The position numbers and the translations under genes are program-made. This document shows, piece by piece, positions 4,713 to 13,687 of a stretch of 13,687 bases of DNA. Origin of the DNA: a virus (taxonomy: Duplodnaviria > Heunggongvirae > Uroviricota > Caudoviricetes). The stretch lies in the IMG/VR virus record IMGVR_UViG_2526164652_000005; one strand, written 5' to 3'. Each line of letters starts with the position of its first letter. Position 1 is the first letter of the stretch. Under the pieces are notes generated by a model, which was not told the origin of the DNA, ran no database searches, and saw only the letters and a program-made list of their open reading frames with translations.

Positions 4713-5194
4713 GACAGCAGCCCTCCCACCGTTTTACTGATATCGCTTAATGCAGATGTTGCCGTGTCCTGCAGATTATTCAGCTGCGCACTGAGATCAC
4801 CGAACATATCGGACAGGGATTCATCCACCCGTTTGAGCGACAGGGTGAACTCAATCCGGCGCGGCATACCGTCGCGGAAAAACTCCGTTTTAGTCTGATT
4901 CAGTCCCTCAATCACATACATGCCGTAAATCGTGCCGCTGCCTTCAATCAGGGGCCATGCTTTCCCCTGTTCTGCCATCTGCTCAAGTGCCAGCAACGAC
5001 AGCCTGCCGCCTGTTATCTCCGGCATAAGAACACCGGAAAGCGTCAGCATGTCGTTGTCCGGTCCCAGAAACTGCGTGGACGGACGACGATTTACCCGGC
5101 TGTTAGCCGCATGTCGCCAGCTGCGTTGATACTGCAGTTCCTGATACGGCACGGTGCGCAGCATAAACACGTACAATCCCAGCACCATCATCAT
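4709..5194 (-). CDS. U: P2 gpU-family tail protein (161 aa)
   Basis: Similarity to P2 gpU (MMVLGL..., QRSWRH motif); ATGA start/stop overlap with the end of T. Confidence 0.85.
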   Translation of the reverse strand: MMMVLGLYVFMLRTVPYQELQYQRSWRHAANSRVNRRPSTQFLGPDNDMLTLSGVLMPEITGGRLSLLALEQMAEQGKAWPLIEGSGTIYGMYVIEGLNQTKTEFFRDGMPRRIEFTLSLKRVDESLSDMFGDLSAQLNNLQDTATSALSDISKTVGGLLS

Positions 5195-8100
5195 GCGTCG
5201 TATCCCCCCTGATCGCTGTAGTTACTCCTGGCTTTTGCCTTCAACCTGCGTTCACGTTCATCAAGCTGGCGGGCCACCTCCCGCGCAATATCCTGCGCAC
5301 TTTGTCCTGGCTGTGTCTGGATGATGATCTGCGTCGGTGCTTCAATCCGGTAAATGGGCGGCACAGTAGCTGCACGACTCACCATCGCTTCACCGCCTTT
5401 CGCGGGAAGCGCCAAAGGATGCAACGGTGGAAGCTCTGCTGGCGCGGCAGCAACGCCCATCATTCCGGCGACAACGGCAGCCAGTGCAGCTGTATTTCTC
5501 CGGCTGGTCACGTTTGCCGGGCCGTTAACAATTTCCGGCCCGTTTTCACCGACGATGCCAAACTGCCCACGCGGGATATAGCCGCCGCTGTCATACATAC
5601 CCGCAAAGCCATATCCCCATGACGGAAAATCACCCGATGGCATCATCACTTTACCGTCTGCATTCACCGTCGCAGGTTGCTGACTCGTCACGCTTTCCGG
5701 TAGTTTTGCCTTTGCGGCCTCTTTACTGACAATGCCGAGTTTCTCCAGCAACCAGGAAACGCCGGATTTCAGGGAGTCCAGCGGATGCATGACCATATTC
5801 AGCCCTTCCGCCAGTGCCTCCCCGAATCGCCGCCCCATTGCCGCTGCACTCTGCAGTTCGGCAGAGGTCGACTTAACGGGCGTCAGCAGATCAGTAAACC
5901 AGCCCCACAGCGCCTGTACTTTGTCGCCAATCCACTGAAACACGGGCTTAAGCGGTTCGAATGCAGCACTGATGGGACCTGCCGCCGCTTTGAATCCTTC
6001 CACCACGCCACCGAGAAATGCGGTGATGGGTTGCCAGTATTTCCAGACAACCAGCGCCACGCCCGCCAGTGCAGTAACCACAAGACCTATCGGACTGAGC
6101 AGAGCACCTAACAGACCAGATACGGCATACAGGGCAACGCGCAGCATCGCCAGCGGACCGGATGCCAGCACACGCAGCACCGCGCCTGCGGCAGCCAGTC
6201 CACCGCGTAGTGCTGCCAGTGGATTCATAAACATCACAGCAACCGCACGTAACCCGGATAATCCAGACCGCAAAAGTGCAACCGGCGCACCTGCTACCGT
6301 TTTCAGGACATTTCCCGTCAGTGATGCCGTGCGGCGCAAAGACGACAACGGCGCAGTAAGTAAACCTGCGGCGTTGCCCGATGAAGCAAGCCCGCGTCGC
6401 AGCAGTGCCTGTGGTGCGCCAGCCAGGACAACGCACTGCTGGTTCGAGTTACTGCTGCCGTAACGGAAGGTAACATTTTGATACCCAGCACAGAGAATCC
6501 CAGACGGATCACTGCCAGCGGCCCCAGCACTGCAGCCAGCGCCACCGCTAAGGTGCCGAGGCCCACGGTAACGGCAGCCACCACAGCGGCTACTTTCATC
6601 AGTGTGCCTGTCAGTTCCGGGTTAGCTTCCACCCAGCGACGCAACGCCCCTGTGACGCTTTTCACCGTGAACAGAATATCCATCAGCGGCTGGCGCAGCG
6701 TTTCGCCCAGGCTGCTGAAGGTGTTCTGCGCTCCGGTTTTGACCAGCAACCACTGAGCAGAAAGTGAGTCCTTGTTGATGTCGGATTCTTTCTGCATGGA
6801 ACCGAGCGCATCATTGCCCGTTGTCAGTTTTAGCTGGCGCTGCAGTTCCGGAAGGTTGTTTGCCAGTTTCGCTGCGTCATCGCCAAACTCTTTACCAAAC
6901 AACATGGTCATGGCAGACAGGCGCTTATCCTGCGGCAGTGCGTTCACCTTCTCCAGCACGCGCTGGATGGTTCCCATCGCATCCTTCGTCATCTGCTTTT
7001 CAATCACTTCAGGATTGAGTTTCAGCAGATTCATCCCTTCAAAGAAACTCTTGCTCTGCATGGTGGCAATGGACAATTCACGCACCATCGCGTTTGCTGC
7101 ACTGGCTGCAACCTCTGGCGCAGCGCCCAGTGTCAGGAAGGTGGAACCCAGCGCCGCCGCTTTACGATAATCCAGACGATCAGCCACACCGCCCAGGCGT
7201 TGCATGACATCAATGATGTCTACCCCTTTCGACATGGCGTTATCATCCAGATAGTTCAGCGCATCACCGAGCTGTTCAATATTGCGGGTAGGGATTTTGT
7301 AGAGCTGGGCGATTTTCCCCAGACTTTCTGACAGTTCATCCGCTGGCAGCTCAAAGGCTGTTGCCGCCTTTGCTGCCGTACTGGCGAAGGCCAGCAGGTC
7401 ACGTTTCTGGTCCTCCCAGCTGTCGTCAGGGTTTGCAACGTTCATACGCGCACCACCTTCAACCAGTGCAGCGAAGTCCACCGCACCGTTTTCCATCGGC
7501 AACTGTTCGCTGGCAGCTTTGATGGCATCCTGCATTTCATAAAAACGTGCAGTGCGGTTGCCATTATCGTCACGCAGACCATTGACCTGCTTTGTCACAC
7601 CTTTCATGGCATCTTCCATGCTGGTATAGCTTTTTACTGCCGCCATCACTGGCGTCCCCATTGCCAGCCCTGCCGCCGTGGTGGTGGCTCCGGCTCCTGC
7701 GATGCGATCGCGCACCTCCAGCGAACGGGCATAACTGGCACGCGCTGCATTCATCCTGCGCTGAGCTTCCCCCAGTCGCTTCAGCCGCGCCTCCTGTTTC
7801 GACAGTTCCTGGTTATAACGTGATGTTTCACGGGCTAAACGGGCAGTTGCTCCCGCATCATCTTTCGCAGAAATTCCCGCCCGGTACAGTTCTGCACGCA
7901 CAAGCGCCGTTTGCTTCTGCAAATATTTTTGTTGTTCTTCCAGGCGTTGGACTGCCAGCGTTTGCCGACCTAAAGCCACAAGGTGCCGTTGTGATGGTTG
8001 TTCCATCGCTTCCAGCTCAGAACTAAGCAAATTTGCCTTCTGTCTGGCATAGTTCAGCCTGTCGCCTAACTTTTTGTTATCGGCCTGCAGCTTGCGAAAT

Positions 8101-8264
8101 TTTTCCAGGCTGTTACCCGCCTGATTGAGTTGCTTTAATGCGTCACGGGAGTTTCTGATTGCGCCAGCCAGCTCTTTCGAACTGGCCTGTGCAGCACGGA
8201 ATGGGCGGGTGAGTTTGTCAACCGCATTAAGAATGACCTGCAGGCGCAGGTTATTATCACTCAT
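5191..8264 (-). pseudogene. T: Tail tape-measure protein gpT, reading frame disrupted: N-terminal ORF 6318-8264 and C-terminal ORF 5191-6348 in a different frame
   Basis: N-terminal ORF begins MSDNNLRLQ..., coiled-coil rich, P2 gpT-like. Its last ~35 codons are low-complexity out-of-frame-looking sequence. The other frame carries proline-terminated 21-22 aa repeats that continue to the U overlap and is open upstream to a stop at 6622-6624. Together these imply a -1 register change around 6380-6500. Confidence 0.7.
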
Positions 8265-8747: not shown

Positions 8748-9263
8748 TCAGAGGCCGAGGGCGTTGCGGTGCGCTTCCATCAGGTCCACACCGTCCACAA
8801 TTTCCACCATGTTGATAAGGTCCACTTCATAGAGCACCTCACCATTGATGGTCAGCTTCGCGTAGCTGTTGGTACTGGTCACTTTGGTGGTGTTGCTTTC
8901 GCCCGTCTTCCACTCGCCGGAATCCACTTCTTTGTGACGTCCTCGCACCACAAGCTCCACAGCCTGCACTTCCCCGGTATCGTCACGCTGGATAGAGCCA
9001 GTAAAGCGCAGCTGGATGCCATCCACAGTGGCTTTGCCCATCTGCTTAAACAGCAGCAGTTCAGTACCACCAATGGAAAATTCTGTGTCCAGAGCACTGT
9101 CATCAAGCCCCAGATCCACATCCACCGCCCCCGGCATTCCGCCGCCGCGATACTTCTCATATTTGCGGGTGAATTTCGGCAGCGTCAGCGACTCAACGAT
9201 CCCCTGCCAGTTGTTCCCGTCGTTAAACAGGTTCAGGTGTTTTAATTTGCGTGGTAAAGCCAT
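8748..9263 (-). CDS. FII: P2 gpFII-family major tail tube protein (171 aa)
   Basis: MALPRKLKHLNLFNDGNN... matches the P2 FII N-terminus; located between FI and E. Confidence 0.88.
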   Translation of the reverse strand: MALPRKLKHLNLFNDGNNWQGIVESLTLPKFTRKYEKYRGGGMPGAVDVDLGLDDSALDTEFSIGGTELLLFKQMGKATVDGIQLRFTGSIQRDDTGEVQAVELVVRGRHKEVDSGEWKTGESNTTKVTSTNSYAKLTINGEVLYEVDLINMVEIVDGVDLMEAHRNALGL

Positions 9264-9272
9264 GTTGTCCCC

Positions 9273-10445
9273 TTACGCGCTGACCTGGCTGGCGAAATTC
9301 ACCAGGTACTGATCGGTGATGCGCTGACGCAGCATCAGGTTTTCAAGTGGCGGCACTGGCGTGTAGTCGTAGTCGATAGTGAGTTTCCCGGCTTTCAGAG
9401 TGTCTTTGTCGTTCACCGACTCGTCCAGCCAGCAATCACCACCAATGAGATACCCCTGACTGACCAGGCTGCGCATTTTGGCGCGGATACCTTCGATAAT
9501 GTCGCGGGCCAGCGACGGATTCAGCGGTTTGTCCACTGCCCACATGTGCGCTTCTGCCATCGTGTCCATCAGTACCTGCGCCGTGCGGGTGTAGTTTTCG
9601 AAGGCAAAGAGCGGGTCATCGCTCAGACAGCGGGAACCCCAGAAGCGGAAACCGTCTTTGCGGATAAGCGTGGTAACGTCGTTCTGGTTAAGCAGACCTG
9701 CATCGGTTGCCGGGTCCTGCAGATCCCAGAACACATCAGCAGAAATTCCGGTGACACCGTTCACGCCCACGTTGGACAGGCTTTTGTGCCATCCGGTCTG
9801 CTCATCAATTTTGGCGCGCAGACCGAGCGCACGGGCGGTGGCATATGCCGTTGCTTCGGCATTCAGCACCGTGTCCCAGCCCGTAAAGTCAGGCCAGATC
9901 AGCATCCCTTCGCGCTGGCTGAAGTTTTCACGGTAAGTGATCGCCTCCTGTACCGTCTTGCAGCCATACGCTGACAGGTAAGCAAACCCACGCAGGCTTT
10001 GCGCCACGCTCAGCAACTCAGTCGCAACGGCTTTGTTATCGTGGCCTGGCACGCCGAGAATGCGCGGTTTAACGCCGAGCTGTGACTGGGCAGATAACAG
10101 GGCTTTCATACCTGTTTTTTTACCTTCAGCAGTCACTGCGCCGATGATATTGGTCGTGGTTTCGTCTTCCGTTTCACCCTGCGGCACACGCACAACAACG
10201 GTCACGGGTTTTGCCTGGTCAGCGATGGCATCCAGCGAACGGGCCAGAGTACCGGACTCACCCGCTTTACCGCTGGCAGTCAGCACATCAGTGATCAGCA
10301 CGGGTTTATTAAGAGGAAACATTTTTGCATCGGCATCATCGCCCGTGCAGACCATACCCACAATGGCGGTGCTCACCGTGGTAATGGATCGGGTGCCTTC
10401 GTTGACTTCAACAACGCGCACCCCGTGGTGGTAATCCTGAGCCAT
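9273..10445 (-). CDS. FI: P2 gpFI-family contractile tail sheath protein (390 aa)
   Basis: Strong similarity to P2 FI along its length (DYHHGV..., [13 protein letters not shown]..., [14 protein letters not shown]...). AGGAGG SD lies 9 nt upstream of the ATG. Confidence 0.9.
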
Positions 10446-10521
10446 AGTGGCGAACCTCCTGATTGGATTAGGCTTCGCCCTATGTTGAAGTGATTGTGCC
10501 TGACAAACAGCTAAGCGCAGT

Positions 10522-10539
10522 TGTACCGTTATTCATACA
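10522..10539 (-). promoter_or_regulatory. Candidate Ogr-dependent late promoter element (TGT-N12-ACA dyad) upstream of FI
   Basis: tgtaccgttattcataca has the TGT-N12-ACA dyad characteristic of P2/P4 late promoters and lies about 85 bp upstream of the FI start. Confidence 0.4.
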
Positions 10540-10587
10540 AAATGACGGTATTTGTCTGCTTGCAGGGATAATCAACATAATGCTGAT

Positions 10588-11160
10588 TCAGGGGGATTCA
10601 TTGCTCTTATTTGCCGGAAATTTTCTATAAATTGTGGAAACACCTACATCAAAAATCAGTGCAATACGCTGTCTTGATTCTCCGGCCTCGAGTAAACGTC
10701 CAATCTGTGCCCACTGTTCGGTGATCAACTTAGGACGGCGTCCACCTACTCTGCCTTTGGCGCGAGCTGCAGCCAGCCCCGCCTTGGTACGTTCAACTAT
10801 CAGTTCGCGCTCCATTTCAGCCAGGGCCCCCATGACATGAAAAAAGAAACGGCCCATTGGGGTACTGGTATCAATACTGTCAGTCAGGCTTCGGAAATTC
10901 ACGCCACGCTGGCGCAGCTCTTCTATCAGCGTAACGAGATGCCGCATACTGCGCCCCAACCTGTCCAGCTTCCAGACAACCAGAGTGTCACCTGCCGATA
11001 ATGTCCTGAGCAGTTTTTTCAGTCCCGGTCTGTCGGACTTAGTGCCACTGATTTTGTCCTCAAAAATCCGCTCACATCCCGCGCAGTTCAGTGCATTACG
11101 TTGCAAATCGGTGTTCTGGTCATTTGTTGACACGCGTACATAGCCAATAAGCATGATCAA
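10588..11160 (-). CDS. Serine-recombinase DNA invertase, Hin/Gin/Pin/Cin family (190 aa)
   Basis: Very high similarity to Hin/Pin: catalytic-serine motif GYVRVSTNDQ, conserved core, C-terminal helix-turn-helix. True start may be the second in-frame ATG. Confidence 0.9.
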   Translation of the reverse strand: MIMLIGYVRVSTNDQNTDLQRNALNCAGCERIFEDKISGTKSDRPGLKKLLRTLSAGDTLVVWKLDRLGRSMRHLVTLIEELRQRGVNFRSLTDSIDTSTPMGRFFFHVMGALAEMERELIVERTKAGLAAARAKGRVGGRRPKLITEQWAQIGRLLEAGESRQRIALIFDVGVSTIYRKFPANKSNESP

Positions 11161-11172
11161 TCCCCTGAATAA

Positions 11173-11472
11173 AAACCGGGGATGATGCCAGTTAGCCGTT
11201 ATCTCTGCATTTTCATAAACGTTGGTTTGGGAGAAGCGGCTAAAAGAAATGTAGGGACAGGGGCGAATCAGATACCTGATATGGGTAGTTTTATGCTTTC
11301 TGCTTCAGTTCCTGGATATCAAAAATTGCCATCCGGTTTAATTATTCAATGGGGGCCAATTGATGTTCCGCTGACGTCTCAGGACACAGTAACCTATTTT
11401 CCGATTGCATTTCCGAATAGATGTCTGCGGGTATTTGCGACTCAGGATTACACTCCCGGCAGTGCAAATGTT
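11173..11472 (+). pseudogene. Truncated variable tail-fibre C-terminal segment (alternative Sv'-type cassette), cut by IS1
   Basis: Reading frame open from 11173, passes through the crossover site and runs into the IS1 left end at 11472/11473; the last 8 codons and stop of the tracked ORF are IS1 sequence. Tail-fibre assignment is by context and a weak remembered resemblance ([14 protein letters not shown]). Confidence 0.4.
11210..11235. other. Candidate Hin-family crossover site (hix/gix/pix-like 26-bp imperfect palindrome)
   Basis: ttttcataaacg-tt-ggtttgggagaa; reverse complement ttctcccaaaccaacgtttatgaaaa resembles hixL TTCTTGAAAACCAAGGTTTTTGATAA. Lies between the invertase gene and the divergent tail-fibre fragment, inside the latter's reading frame. 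Confidence 0.4.
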
Positions 11473-11495
11473 GGTAATGCTGCCAACTTACTGAT
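11473..11495. repeat. IS1 left terminal inverted repeat
   Basis: ggtaatgctgccaacttactgat; matches the reverse complement of the right end with few mismatches. Confidence 0.85.
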
Positions 11496-11527
11496 TTAGT
11501 GTATGATGGTGATTTTAAGGTGCTTGC

Positions 11528-11803
11528 GTGGCTTCCATTTCCATCAGATGTCCTTCCTGCTCCGCTACTGAAGGCGTGGTGCGTAACGGCAAAAGCACTG
11601 CCGGACATCAGCGCTATCTCTGCTCTCATTGCCGTAAAACATGGCAACTACAGTTCACTTACACCGCCTCTCAGCCCGGTACGCACCAGAAAATCATTGA
11701 TATGGCCATGAATGGCGTCGGATGTCGCGCCAGTGCACGCATTATGGGCGTTGGCCTCAACACGGTTTTACGTCACTTAAAAAACTCAGGCCGCAGTCGG
11801 TAA
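11528..11803 (+). CDS. insA: IS1 InsA (91 aa)
   Basis: Matches remembered IS1 InsA ([23 protein letters not shown]...). Confidence 0.95.
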
Positions 11804-12225
11804 CCTCGCGCATACAACCGGGCAGTGATGTGATTGTCTGCGCTGAAATGGACGAACATTGGGGCTACGTCGGTGCTAAATCACGTCAGCGCTGGCTGTT
11901 TTACGCGTATGACAGGATACGGAGGACGGTTGTGGCGCACGTCTTCGGTGAACGCACTCTGGCCACACTGGAGCGTCTTCTGAGCCTGCTGTCGGCCTTT
12001 GAGGTCGTGGTATGGATGACGGATGGCTGGCCGCTGTATGAATCACGCCTGAAGGGAAAGCTGCACGTTATCAGCAAGCGTTACACTCAGCGCATTGAGC
12101 GACATAATCTGAATCTGAGACAACATCTGGCAAGGCTGGGACGGAAGTCACTGTCGTTCTCAAAATCGGTGGAGCTGCATGACAAGGTCATCGGGCATTA
12201 TCTGAACATAAAACACTATCAGTAA
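11722..12225 (+). CDS. insB: IS1 insB' frame; expressed as the InsAB' transposase by -1 frameshift at A6C (11779-11785)
   Basis: Matches remembered IS1 InsB; the ttaaaaaac motif lies in the insA/insB overlap. Confidence 0.9.
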
Positions 12226-12240
12226 GTTGGAGTCATTACC
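12218..12240. repeat. IS1 right terminal inverted repeat
   Basis: atcagtaagttggagtcattacc. Confidence 0.85.
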
Positions 12241-12242
12241 GT

Positions 12243-12551
12243 GTTCGTGAACTCGGTGATGCTAGTGTTCCTTTTTCGTTCGATGTTCATGCGATGATTT
12301 ATAGTGATGATGCACCATCATTAGAAAATCATCTGCATAAAGTCTTCAACGAAAAACAGGTCAATAAAATTAACTCACGAAAAGAGTTTTTCAACGTAAA
12401 TATTAAAGAAATTAAGTCTGTTATTGAAGATATGAACATCAACGCACAATGGACAATGTTTGCGGAAGCGAAAGAATATAGAGAGTCACTGGCGATTGAG
12501 CAAGAGCGCAAAGCAGCAACTTCCGCCAACGATGAACTGCATGTTGCTTAG
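12243..12551 (+). pseudogene. 3' fragment of a T5orf172-domain (GIY-YIG-like) protein gene, truncated at its 5' side by IS1
   Basis: Frame is open directly from the IS1 right end (...RVRELGDASVPFSFDVHAMIYSDDAPSLENHLHKVFNEKQVNKINSRKEFFNV...); this resembles the C-terminal T5orf172 motif. No start codon of its own until 12294. Confidence 0.5.
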
Positions 12552-12610
12552 CAATGTATGTTTCATAGTAATCACACATTGATTACTGGTTGTATATACA
12601 GTTAAATTTA

Positions 12611-12634
12611 GCCCTCTGATATGAGGGCTTTTTT
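12611..12634 (+). terminator. Intrinsic terminator-like hairpin immediately upstream of int
   Basis: Stem gccctc (12611-12616) / gagggc (12623-12628), 6-nt loop, then T6 (12629-12634). Confidence 0.5.
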
Positions 12635-13687
12635 ATGGCAGTACGAAAACTCACCACAGGAAAATGGCTTTGCGAATGTTACCCCGCCGGACGTAGTGGA
12701 CGTCGTGTGCGTAAACAATTCGCCACCAAAGGCGAAGCTCTGGCTTTTGAGCGTCACACGATGGAAGAAACCGAAGCAAAGCCCTGGCTGGGTGAATCAG
12801 TGGATCGTCGAACACTGAAAGACGTGGTTGAACTATGGTTCAAACTACATGGTAAATCTCTGACAGCTGGGCAGCATGTCTATGACAAATTGCTGTTGAT
12901 GGTTGACGCTCTGGGCAATCCTCTTGCAACCGATCTCACCTCTAAAATGTTTGCCCACTATCGAGATAAACGCCTGACAGGCGAGATCTACTTCAGCGAG
13001 AAATGGAAGAAAGGAGCAAGCCCGGTCACCATTAACCTGGAGCAAAGCTATCTAAGTAGTATTTTTAGCGAACTATCCCGTCTGGGCGAATGGTCGTATC
13101 CGAACCCACTGGAGAACATGCGAAAATTCACCATCGCAGAAAAAGAGATGGCATGGCTTACCCATGAGCAGATTGTTGAATTGCTGGCTGATTGCAAACG
13201 TCAGGACCCAATTCTGGCACTGGTAGTTAAGATATGCTTAAGCACAGGCGCACGCTGGCGTGAAGCCGTAAATCTTACTCGCTCACAGGTGACCAAATAC
13301 CGAATTACCTTTGTCAGAACGAAGGGGAAGAAAAACAGAAGCATCCCTATCAGTAAAGAGCTTTACGAAGAGATCATGGCGCTTGATGGGTTCAATTTCT
13401 TCACAGACTGCTATTTTCAATTTTTATCCGTGATGGAAAAAACGTCTATCGTGCTCCCTCGCGGTCAACTCACACACGTTCTGCGCCATACGTTTGCGGC
13501 GCACTTCATGATGTCGGGTGGAAACATTCTGGCCTTACAAAAAATTCTCGGACACCACGATATAAAAATGACTATGCGTTACGCACATCTGGCACCGGAT
13601 CATCTGGAAACGGCGCTCCGTTTCAATCCTCTGGCAACGCTGCCAAGTGGCGACAAAGTGGCGGCAGCGGTTGGCATTACCCCGTAA
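12635..13687 (+). CDS. int: P2-family tyrosine integrase (350 aa), complete; TAA at the window end
   Basis: Similarity to P2 Int (MAIKKLDDGRYEV... versus MAVRKLTTGKWLCE...); conserved catalytic region LSTGARW, RHTFAAHFM, LGHHDIKMTMRYAHL. Confidence 0.88.
   Translation: MAVRKLTTGKWLCECYPAGRSGRRVRKQFATKGEALAFERHTMEETEAKPWLGESVDRRTLKDVVELWFKLHGKSLTAGQHVYDKLLLMVDALGNPLATDLTSKMFAHYRDKRLTGEIYFSEKWKKGASPVTINLEQSYLSSIFSELSRLGEWSYPNPLENMRKFTIAEKEMAWLTHEQIVELLADCKRQDPILALVVKICLSTGARWREAVNLTRSQVTKYRITFVRTKGKKNRSIPISKELYEEIMALDGFNFFTDCYFQFLSVMEKTSIVLPRGQLTHVLRHTFAAHFMMSGGNILALQKILGHHDIKMTMRYAHLAPDHLETALRFNPLATLPSGDKVAAAVGITP

Follow-up and report, generated by a model that had tools for sequence, protein, structure and literature searches.

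A conserved hairpin holding the integrase ribosome-binding site in 186-like prophages, and a putative LexA-controlled promoter that would start within it

Phage 186 is a textbook system for the choice between lysis and lysogeny, and its integrase gene, int, is regarded as being transcribed along with the cI operon. A question about this gene is raised by a 13,687-nucleotide (nt) stretch of a Caudoviricetes virus, IMG/VR record IMGVR_UViG_2526164652_000005 (hereafter the window, meaning the whole stretch), which ends with an intact int of the 186/P2 family. There, the Shine-Dalgarno sequence of int forms one arm of a GC-rich hairpin that is followed by a run of T residues and then by the start codon. 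How could an integrase be made from a message whose ribosome-binding site lies inside a terminator? The hairpin is real and conserved. Its best explanation, drawn with moderate confidence from sequence comparison, is a module in which a LexA-controlled promoter is set into a terminator hairpin and int is thereby insulated from transcription that arrives from upstream.

The hairpin spans 12610-12629 on the plus strand and consists of a 5' arm, AGCCCTC (12610-12616), a 6-nt loop, TGATAT (12617-12622), and a 3' arm, GAGGGCT (12623-12629), which pair in a stem of 7 base pairs (bp), five of them G-C. The int Shine-Dalgarno sequence, GAGGG (12623-12627, plus strand), lies within the 3' arm, 7 nt before the ATG at 12635, and is predicted to form a duplex with the 3' end of 16S ribosomal RNA. 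A T6 tract (12629-12634, plus strand), whose first T is paired in the stem, completes the form of an intrinsic terminator. The initial annotation had described this arrangement, and the sequence confirms it; the two objections that it had raised against itself, that the hairpin might be unstable in the messenger RNA (mRNA) or that int might start further downstream, both fail. The RNA fold has an energy of -13.3 kcal/mol and a z-score of -3.1 relative to dinucleotide shuffles (1 of 200 as good), and the minimum-energy folds of 81-nt and 149-nt contexts retain the hairpin. In alignments of the first 50 residues, the ATG at 12635 corresponds to residue 1 of homologous integrases with identities as low as 40%, among them 186 and P2 Int with their annotated starts, and M1, K5 and G9 do not vary. 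The GenBank annotation of Klebsiella phage 4LV2017 (L002) puts the int start 24 codons past this family-conserved ATG (2514 vs 2586), and this late start conceals the arrangement of hairpin and Shine-Dalgarno sequence.

A terminator scan of 11000-13687 returned the hairpin as the sole terminator-like site on the plus strand, 59 nt past the stop codon (12551) of a co-directional upstream gene. A role as a terminator for the minus strand was considered and rejected: the opposite strand folds equally well, but TAAATTTAA comes next, which makes it a poor terminator in that direction.

About 160 related loci were compared, 80 of them viral contigs in which int is 99-100% identical and 77 from the genomes of other species, with int 48-99% identical. 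Between cI and int, the 80 contigs have no fewer than 12 different sets of genes, and all share one module of ~80 nt, which starts right past the stop codon of the cargo. Among the 77 loci of other enterobacterial species, the module is kept in the same order and with the same spacing down to ~55% identity of int, in genera that include Serratia, Yersinia, Rahnella, Pantoea, Pectobacterium, Brenneria and Kluyvera. It consists of an inverted repeat (ATGTWTG-N12/13-CAWACAT), a TTGAC-type -35, the motif CTG(T/G)-N8-ACAG, an A/T-rich -10, the hairpin with the Shine-Dalgarno sequence in its 3' arm, and the ATG.

The arms of the hairpin are unrelated in sequence among clades: AGCCCTC/GAGGGCT, ATGCTCTCC/GGAGGGCAT, ACTCTCCTAAA/TTTAGGAGAGT, CACATTCTC/GAGAATGTG, ACCCCCTT/AAGGGGGT, CCTCCATT/AATGGAGG and ACAGTCC/GGGCTGT, together with a compensated stem change, AGTCCTC/GAGGACT. 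RNAalifold found no consensus structure on a MAFFT alignment of 32 leaders, since the sequences of the hairpins do not align between clades, and conservation was judged instead by folding z-scores computed for each class. Seven of the ten hairpins tested, unrelated in sequence and placed at the same position in other clades, gave z-scores of -2.5 to -7.0. The T run after the hairpin is present in the whole clade of E. coli, Klebsiella and Enterobacter and is missing in most distant clades, so that occlusion of the Shine-Dalgarno sequence is the most widely shared feature of the hairpin.

The T run also bears on the simplest alternative, namely that the hairpin is a plain terminator of the cargo gene (in the window, SNIPE), that its overlap with the Shine-Dalgarno sequence is an accident of a short gap, that int is served by leaky read-through from the cI operon, and that the promoter with the LexA box described below is non-functional. 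Where the T run is present, 59 of 60 contexts have no other terminator within 200 nt upstream; where it is missing, 12 of 20 have one of canonical form immediately before the module. This complementary distribution speaks for a plain terminator, as do its canonical form 59 nt after a stop codon and the annotated expression of 186 int itself from the cI operon. However, clades that lack the T run keep a hairpin of unrelated sequence that pairs with the Shine-Dalgarno sequence in the same place. In the E. coli clade, termination and Shine-Dalgarno occlusion appear to be fused in one hairpin. A GC-rich canonical terminator just upstream of the inverted repeat, combined with a hairpin without T run, was seen in Pantoea, Mixta, Winslowiella, Rahnella, Ewingella, Pectobacterium and Acerihabitans, and the loci with such a separate terminator are L115, L117, L122, L129, L113, L114, L116, L121, L162, L110 and L120.

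A conserved promoter-like element stands directly before the hairpin, on the plus strand. Its predicted -35 hexamer is TTGATT (12579-12584; TTGACA or TTGACC in most relatives), at a position that is conserved in all modules, and its predicted -10 hexamer is TAAATT (12603-12608) after an 18-nt spacer, or alternatively TTAAAT (12602-12607) after a spacer of 17 nt; AAAAAT or TAAAAT stands at the equivalent place in other clades. This element lies 35 nt downstream of the promoter that the initial annotation had proposed, TTGCTT-N17-AGTAAT (true span 12544-12572). That proposal had to be abandoned: it failed the promoter scan and is not conserved, it has a G at the critical position 2 of the -10 where the conserved A is missing, it overlaps the upstream stop codon, and it lies partly inside sequence that is wholly different among relatives with other cargo.

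The abandoned promoter also figures in a further alternative, a small RNA gene that ends at the terminator and is either RyhB-like or transcribed from TTGCTT-N17-AGTAAT. A search of the window locus against Rfam returned sub-threshold matches only, the best of them to RyhB at 12568-12636 (30 bits, E = 0.0017), and this match is what speaks for such a gene. Its score, however, lies far under the gathering score of 55 and comes from a generic hairpin and U tail, and the promoter is partly cargo-specific and without the conserved A at position 2 of its -10. A small RNA gene is hardly credible here.

Promoter geometry places the predicted start of int transcription at 12613-12619 on the plus strand, where 12615 is the seventh nt after the -10 and 12618-12619 are the closest purines. 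The same geometry recurs across 63 distinct modules, in which 0-2 nt separate the -10 from the 5' arm, unless the arm starts within the -10, and the seventh nt past the -10 lies at the 3' end of that arm. In partition-function folds, the Shine-Dalgarno sequence is unpaired with a probability of 0.00 in long RNAs starting at 12500-12611 and of 0.24-0.5 in RNAs predicted to start at 12615 or later, a range that reflects how the Shine-Dalgarno sequence is delimited; the difference between long and short RNAs goes in the same direction in most other clades. These folds, with the Shine-Dalgarno sequence 0% unpaired in incoming transcripts, together with the terminator form, support the earlier prediction that RNA from upstream would terminate or have this sequence paired.

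A tight post-transcriptional limitation in the sense of the initial annotation would be given by a leader attenuator, in which every int transcript, that from its own promoter included, contains the hairpin, termination and Shine-Dalgarno occlusion always hold int low, and some factor or ribosome event is needed to open the structure. Such an attenuator would agree with the Shine-Dalgarno sequence staying paired if transcription starts at 12613 or earlier and with the retention of the hairpin in clades that have an upstream terminator, and int of P2 is reportedly under post-transcriptional control. It is nevertheless improbable. In every clade the 5' arm either follows the -10 by 0-2 nt or starts within it, and a start 6-8 nt after the -10 excludes the arm; a terminator in the first 25 nt of the sole dedicated transcript would make a conserved promoter pointless; and neither an upstream leader open reading frame nor an alternative anti-terminator pairing is conserved among the compared loci.

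A regulated promoter is suggested by the spacer between -35 and -10, which is filled by a LexA (SOS) box, TACTGGTTGTATATACAGTT (12584-12603, no strand assigned). LexA boxes have the consensus taCTGtatatatataCAGta, a CTG-N10-CAG palindrome with an A/T-rich centre (PMC7556043), and TACTGGTTGTATATACAGTT agrees with it at 16 of 20 positions. Scored with a matrix of 26 E. coli LexA sites, the box reaches 24.8 bits, vs 12.7-26.8 for the 26 sites themselves and 7.9 for the runner-up 20-mer in the window. Its heterology index is 1.8-5.6, vs 1.0-9.6 for known sites and 12.3 for the best of 20,000 random 20-mers. The sequences upstream of int fall into two groups: in 70 distinct ones a box of 15-27 bits lies 27-34 nt ahead of the ATG, and the 27 that lack the module stay below a score of 7. 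Across the distinct sequences, CTG and CAG are invariant and the centre is variable, which is the signature of an operator.

It is here that the plain terminator meets a further difficulty. A LexA box that ranks with the strongest known sites, combined with a -35 and a -10 at fixed spacing, in 70 distinct sequences and over ~45% protein divergence, is not what a non-functional promoter would leave behind, and a variable centre flanked by invariant CTG and CAG is unexpected in non-functional DNA; we consider this alternative unlikely.

In L001, an intact relative of 29 kb, the matrix matches tandem boxes, the int site and one weak intragenic site, and nothing else. The tandem boxes (L001 6727-6761; 15.7 and 23.6 bits) stand upstream of an operon of a hypothetical protein and a DinI-like protein, at a place that resembles the LexA-controlled p95-tum promoter of 186; the likeness is one of position. 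A LexA box was also found in Vibrio phage 10N.286.45.F8_PE002 (L165 2467-2486), a P2-like phage that has cargo upstream of its int and whose int is 49% identical: TACTGTTTTTATATACAGTT, with 26.5 bits, stands 15 nt before the int ATG, which suggests that LexA control of int extends beyond Enterobacterales.

Directly upstream of the -35 lies the inverted repeat, ATGTATG-N12-CACACAT in the window (12554-12579, no strand assigned), a putative CII binding site with half-sites like those of the 186 CII operator. It matches once in the window, against 0.03 matches expected. The annotated CII site at pE of 186 is ATGTTTG-N13-CAAACAT, and pE of the relatives, whose CII is 69% identical to that of 186, has this site as well. 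The window half-sites match 13 of 14 positions of ATGTWTG/CAWACAT, as most relatives do with 13-14 of 14. The half-sites are separated by 12 nt in 37 of 62 modules (the window included) and by 13 nt in 23, together 60 of 62. The right half-site stands 21 nt from the -10 at pE of 186 and 22 nt from it at pE of L001, compared with 22 nt in the hairpin variant of the ATGCTCTCC type and 22-23 nt in the window.

Could the repeat be something else, with the LexA-controlled promoter left as it is? It might fold, in RNA, into a stem that closes the cargo mRNA, or serve as the site of another protein, and this is quite possible, though we would not call it probable. Most modules have a spacing of 12 nt instead of 13, long palindromes without a mismatch occur among the variants (such as ATGTATGAATTT-ATG-AAATTCATACAT in L092), and most relatives have a good -35 of their own, with no obvious need for an activator. 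On the other side stand the agreement of the half-sites with the annotated 186 operator and with the phages' own pE sites, the limitation of the spacing to 12 or 13 nt, and a position relative to the -10 that equals that at pE. Moreover, variation at the W positions of one arm is independent of that in the other (e.g. ATGTATA...CAAACAT), so the arms hold to the consensus rather than to mutual complementarity, which points to a protein site rather than an RNA stem; for this and for the fixed spacing, the stem was set aside as the principal interpretation of the repeat. The case for CII is suggestive and weaker than that for LexA, as the spacing is unlike that of pE and cII is absent from the window. 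As cII has been deleted there, only the LexA input could operate in the window; the intact relatives of its prophage do have cII. A perfect 8-bp inverted repeat, AGTAATCA/TGATTACT (window 12567-12587), spans the right half-site and the -35; it is confined to the module variant linked to SNIPE and is not conserved in the others.

Taken as a LexA-controlled promoter inside a terminator hairpin, the module might work as follows. The hairpin and T tract would act as the intrinsic terminator of the upstream cI-cargo operon, and in RNA that reads through, the hairpin would bury the int Shine-Dalgarno sequence. Together, termination and burial would insulate int from upstream transcription, including that from IS1 in the remnant found in the window. 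The gene would have its own sigma-70 promoter, with a putative high-affinity LexA operator filling the spacer and a 186-CII-type repeat directly upstream, in an arrangement like that of the CII-dependent pE. As the -10 adjoins the 5' arm, transcription would begin at about 12615-12619, at the end of that arm or in the loop. An mRNA with such a start could not form the hairpin and would be neither terminated nor translationally blocked; it would have a leader of ~20 nt and a free Shine-Dalgarno sequence. In a healthy lysogen, int would be silent, with LexA bound and read-through blocked. Cleavage of LexA would allow Int to be made at the time when it is needed for excision, and CII would probably boost int while lysogeny is being established. 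The comparison shows the sequence elements with their statistical strength and conservation, the hairpin as a conserved structure, and a predicted folding difference between long and short RNAs; that LexA and CII bind, where transcription starts and terminates, and how int is induced and regulated are what we infer from the sequences. Thus, of the limitation of int that the initial annotation had suggested, insulation from upstream transcription stands, and a general, tight post-transcriptional limitation does not: a dedicated SOS-responsive promoter that escapes the hairpin is the better reading.

Several points weigh against this account. The hairpin is kept in clades that have a separate terminator upstream, and it may have a further role there. 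The model of long and short RNAs is consistent with the start at 12615 derived from promoter geometry, yet it is sensitive to the exact position, as an RNA predicted to start at 12613 has its Shine-Dalgarno sequence unpaired with a probability of 0.02. Even from 12615 on, the release is partial (the 0.24-0.5 given above) because of weak pairing with the coding region. The window promoter is mediocre (TTGATT, 18-nt spacer, TAAATT; 8 of 12 matches) and falls under the scan threshold, and the window variant has no purine at +4 to +9 after the -10. As to the LexA matrix, agreement with a published source was checked for the consensus alone (PMC7556043). A LexA operator within the spacer is expected to block CII-stimulated transcription in undamaged cells, so that the supply of Int for integration becomes hard to account for. 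As to CII itself, all pE sites have the 13-nt spacing, the int repeats mostly have 12, and the window repeat, which has 12, deviates from the 186 half-sites at two positions; binding of 186 CII, according to what Shearwin and Egan are said to have reported in 2000, is sensitive to spacing changes of 1 bp.

The module is absent from 186, P2, SopEPhi and several phages of Yersinia, Klebsiella and Aeromonas. In 186, where cI and int share 1 nt, no module adjoins int; likewise, neither LexA box nor repeat was found in 186-type loci or in several phages whose cargo directly abuts int. The absence from the model phages is thus accounted for by cI or cargo abutting int, and the module accompanies those int genes that are uncoupled from the cI operon. 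None of the experimentally studied phages can serve as a direct precedent for it.

Precedents for parts of its logic exist elsewhere. The transposase genes of IS10 and IS50 are reportedly shielded from outside read-through by fold-back inhibition, a finding attributed to Davis, Simons and Kleckner in 1985 and to Krebs, Schulz and Reznikoff. As proposed for int, incoming transcripts include the two arms of a hairpin in which the ribosome-binding site is buried, and the element's own promoter starts inside the hairpin and gives a translatable mRNA. The int module differs in protecting a phage integrase, in having a hairpin that also has the full form of an intrinsic terminator, in its putative LexA operator, and in the lack of any sequence relationship. 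Phage lambda has pI, a CII-activated promoter for int, and subjects int to sib retroregulation via RNase III. Common to lambda and the module as proposed are a dedicated int promoter with a site for an activator of lysogeny establishment and an int mRNA whose fate is set by the promoter from which it originates. Lambda, however, discriminates at the 3' end (sib, RNase III) and the int module would do so at the 5' end, the CII proteins of lambda and 186 are unrelated, and lambda pI has no LexA operator. Activation of lambda int by CII is documented (PMC7708051).

Within 186, pE resembles the int module in its half-sites (ATGTTTG/CAAACAT vs ATGTWTG/CAWACAT) and in their distance to the -10 (21-22 vs 22-23 nt), but it lies at the start of cII, drives cI-int, has a 13-nt spacing, and shows no recognisable -35 and no LexA box (NC_001317 annotation; PMC7708051). 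The p95-tum promoter of 186 is under LexA control and links this prophage family to the SOS response (PMC7708051); in 186, LexA is known to control the antirepressor only, not int. LexA-repressed integrase promoters have been described for intI of integrons (PMC3108266), where, as here, an SOS box of the gammaproteobacterial type lies across the promoter of a gene for a tyrosine recombinase, although integron integrases belong to another recombinase subfamily and another genetic context. The int module is not a sequence relative of IS10/IS50, lambda pI or the integron promoters, and the likeness is one of mechanism and logic. Searches of the searchable literature found no description of LexA or CII control of int in P2/186-like phages, and the arrangement of the module is apparently undescribed there.

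A broader proposal, to which we give slightly less than an even chance, is that a widespread class of 186/P2-like prophages has rewired the control of int: as cargo separated int from cI, int would have acquired a cassette of CII site, LexA operator and promoter-in-hairpin, a portable insulator that also makes Int directly SOS-inducible. If so, a direct LexA (and possibly CII) input on int would be a new connection in the 186 circuit and an analogue of lambda pI. The synthesis of Int would be SOS-inducible independently of the Tum antirepressor route, which would explain how Int is supplied at induction while leftward transcription is shutting off. Prophages could then hold constitutive defence genes beside a recombinase gene without deregulating the recombinase, and a promoter inside a terminator would be an insulator that leaves int undisturbed when cargo is swapped. 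The module would also predict that orphan integrases in prophage remnants of the window type stay SOS-inducible.

In enterobacterial prophages, a defence hotspot has its right-hand border at the conserved module. The genes between cI and int that were tested encode defence systems, namely Old (E = 9e-235), the KAP NTPase PDC-S20, PDC-M18A, PDC-M11A, AriA/OLD-like ATPases and SNIPE, and they are expected to be expressed in the lysogen. Throughout L001-L084 and L087-L130, the cI-int interval is a defence hotspot of enterobacterial 186-like prophages, which also holds several unannotated proteins. Rousset et al. (2022, PMC9122126) note the cI-int position as a defence hotspot solely in Vibrio K139-like phages, which are related to P2, and the literature consulted reports it for no other group. 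The variable defence cargo has the same genomic position there as here; the paper, as far as searched, treats the cargo and describes no regulatory module, and the loci here belong to enterobacterial 186-like prophages.

The window itself is a remnant of a P2/186-like prophage adjoining ybjL. Its minus strand carries ogr, D, U and the tape-measure, tube, sheath and invertase genes, after which follow IS1, the last 312 nt of the SNIPE/DUF4041 gene, and int. The IS1 copy (11473-12240, plus strand) has its left end at 11473-11495, contains open reading frames of the sizes of insA and insB, and bridges the tail/invertase region and the 3' portion of the SNIPE (DUF4041) gene; homology to intact prophages restarts at 12240. 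The tail fibre, head and replication genes, cII, apl and cI are gone from between the invertase/tail region and the SNIPE remnant, and the sequence thus marks the window as an IS1-associated deletion remnant of a 186-like prophage that has kept int intact.

The cargo gene upstream of int is represented by the 3' remnant of the SNIPE/DUF4041 defence gene (12294-12551, plus strand; stop codon 12549-12551), 99.9% identical to the 3' end of a 1677-nt gene associated with DUF4041/SNIPE in intact prophages. In these intact relatives, cI is followed by the DUF4041 gene, an 83-nt gap and int. The int gene of the window (12635-13687, plus strand) encodes a 350-residue tyrosine integrase of the 186/P2 family in an intact frame, with 100% identical copies in many prophages. 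The tape-measure gene of the window (5191-8264) is apparently frameshifted into two overlapping open reading frames on the minus strand, 6318-8264 and 5191-6348, whose counterpart in L004 is a single gene of 3078 nt at 8966-12043.

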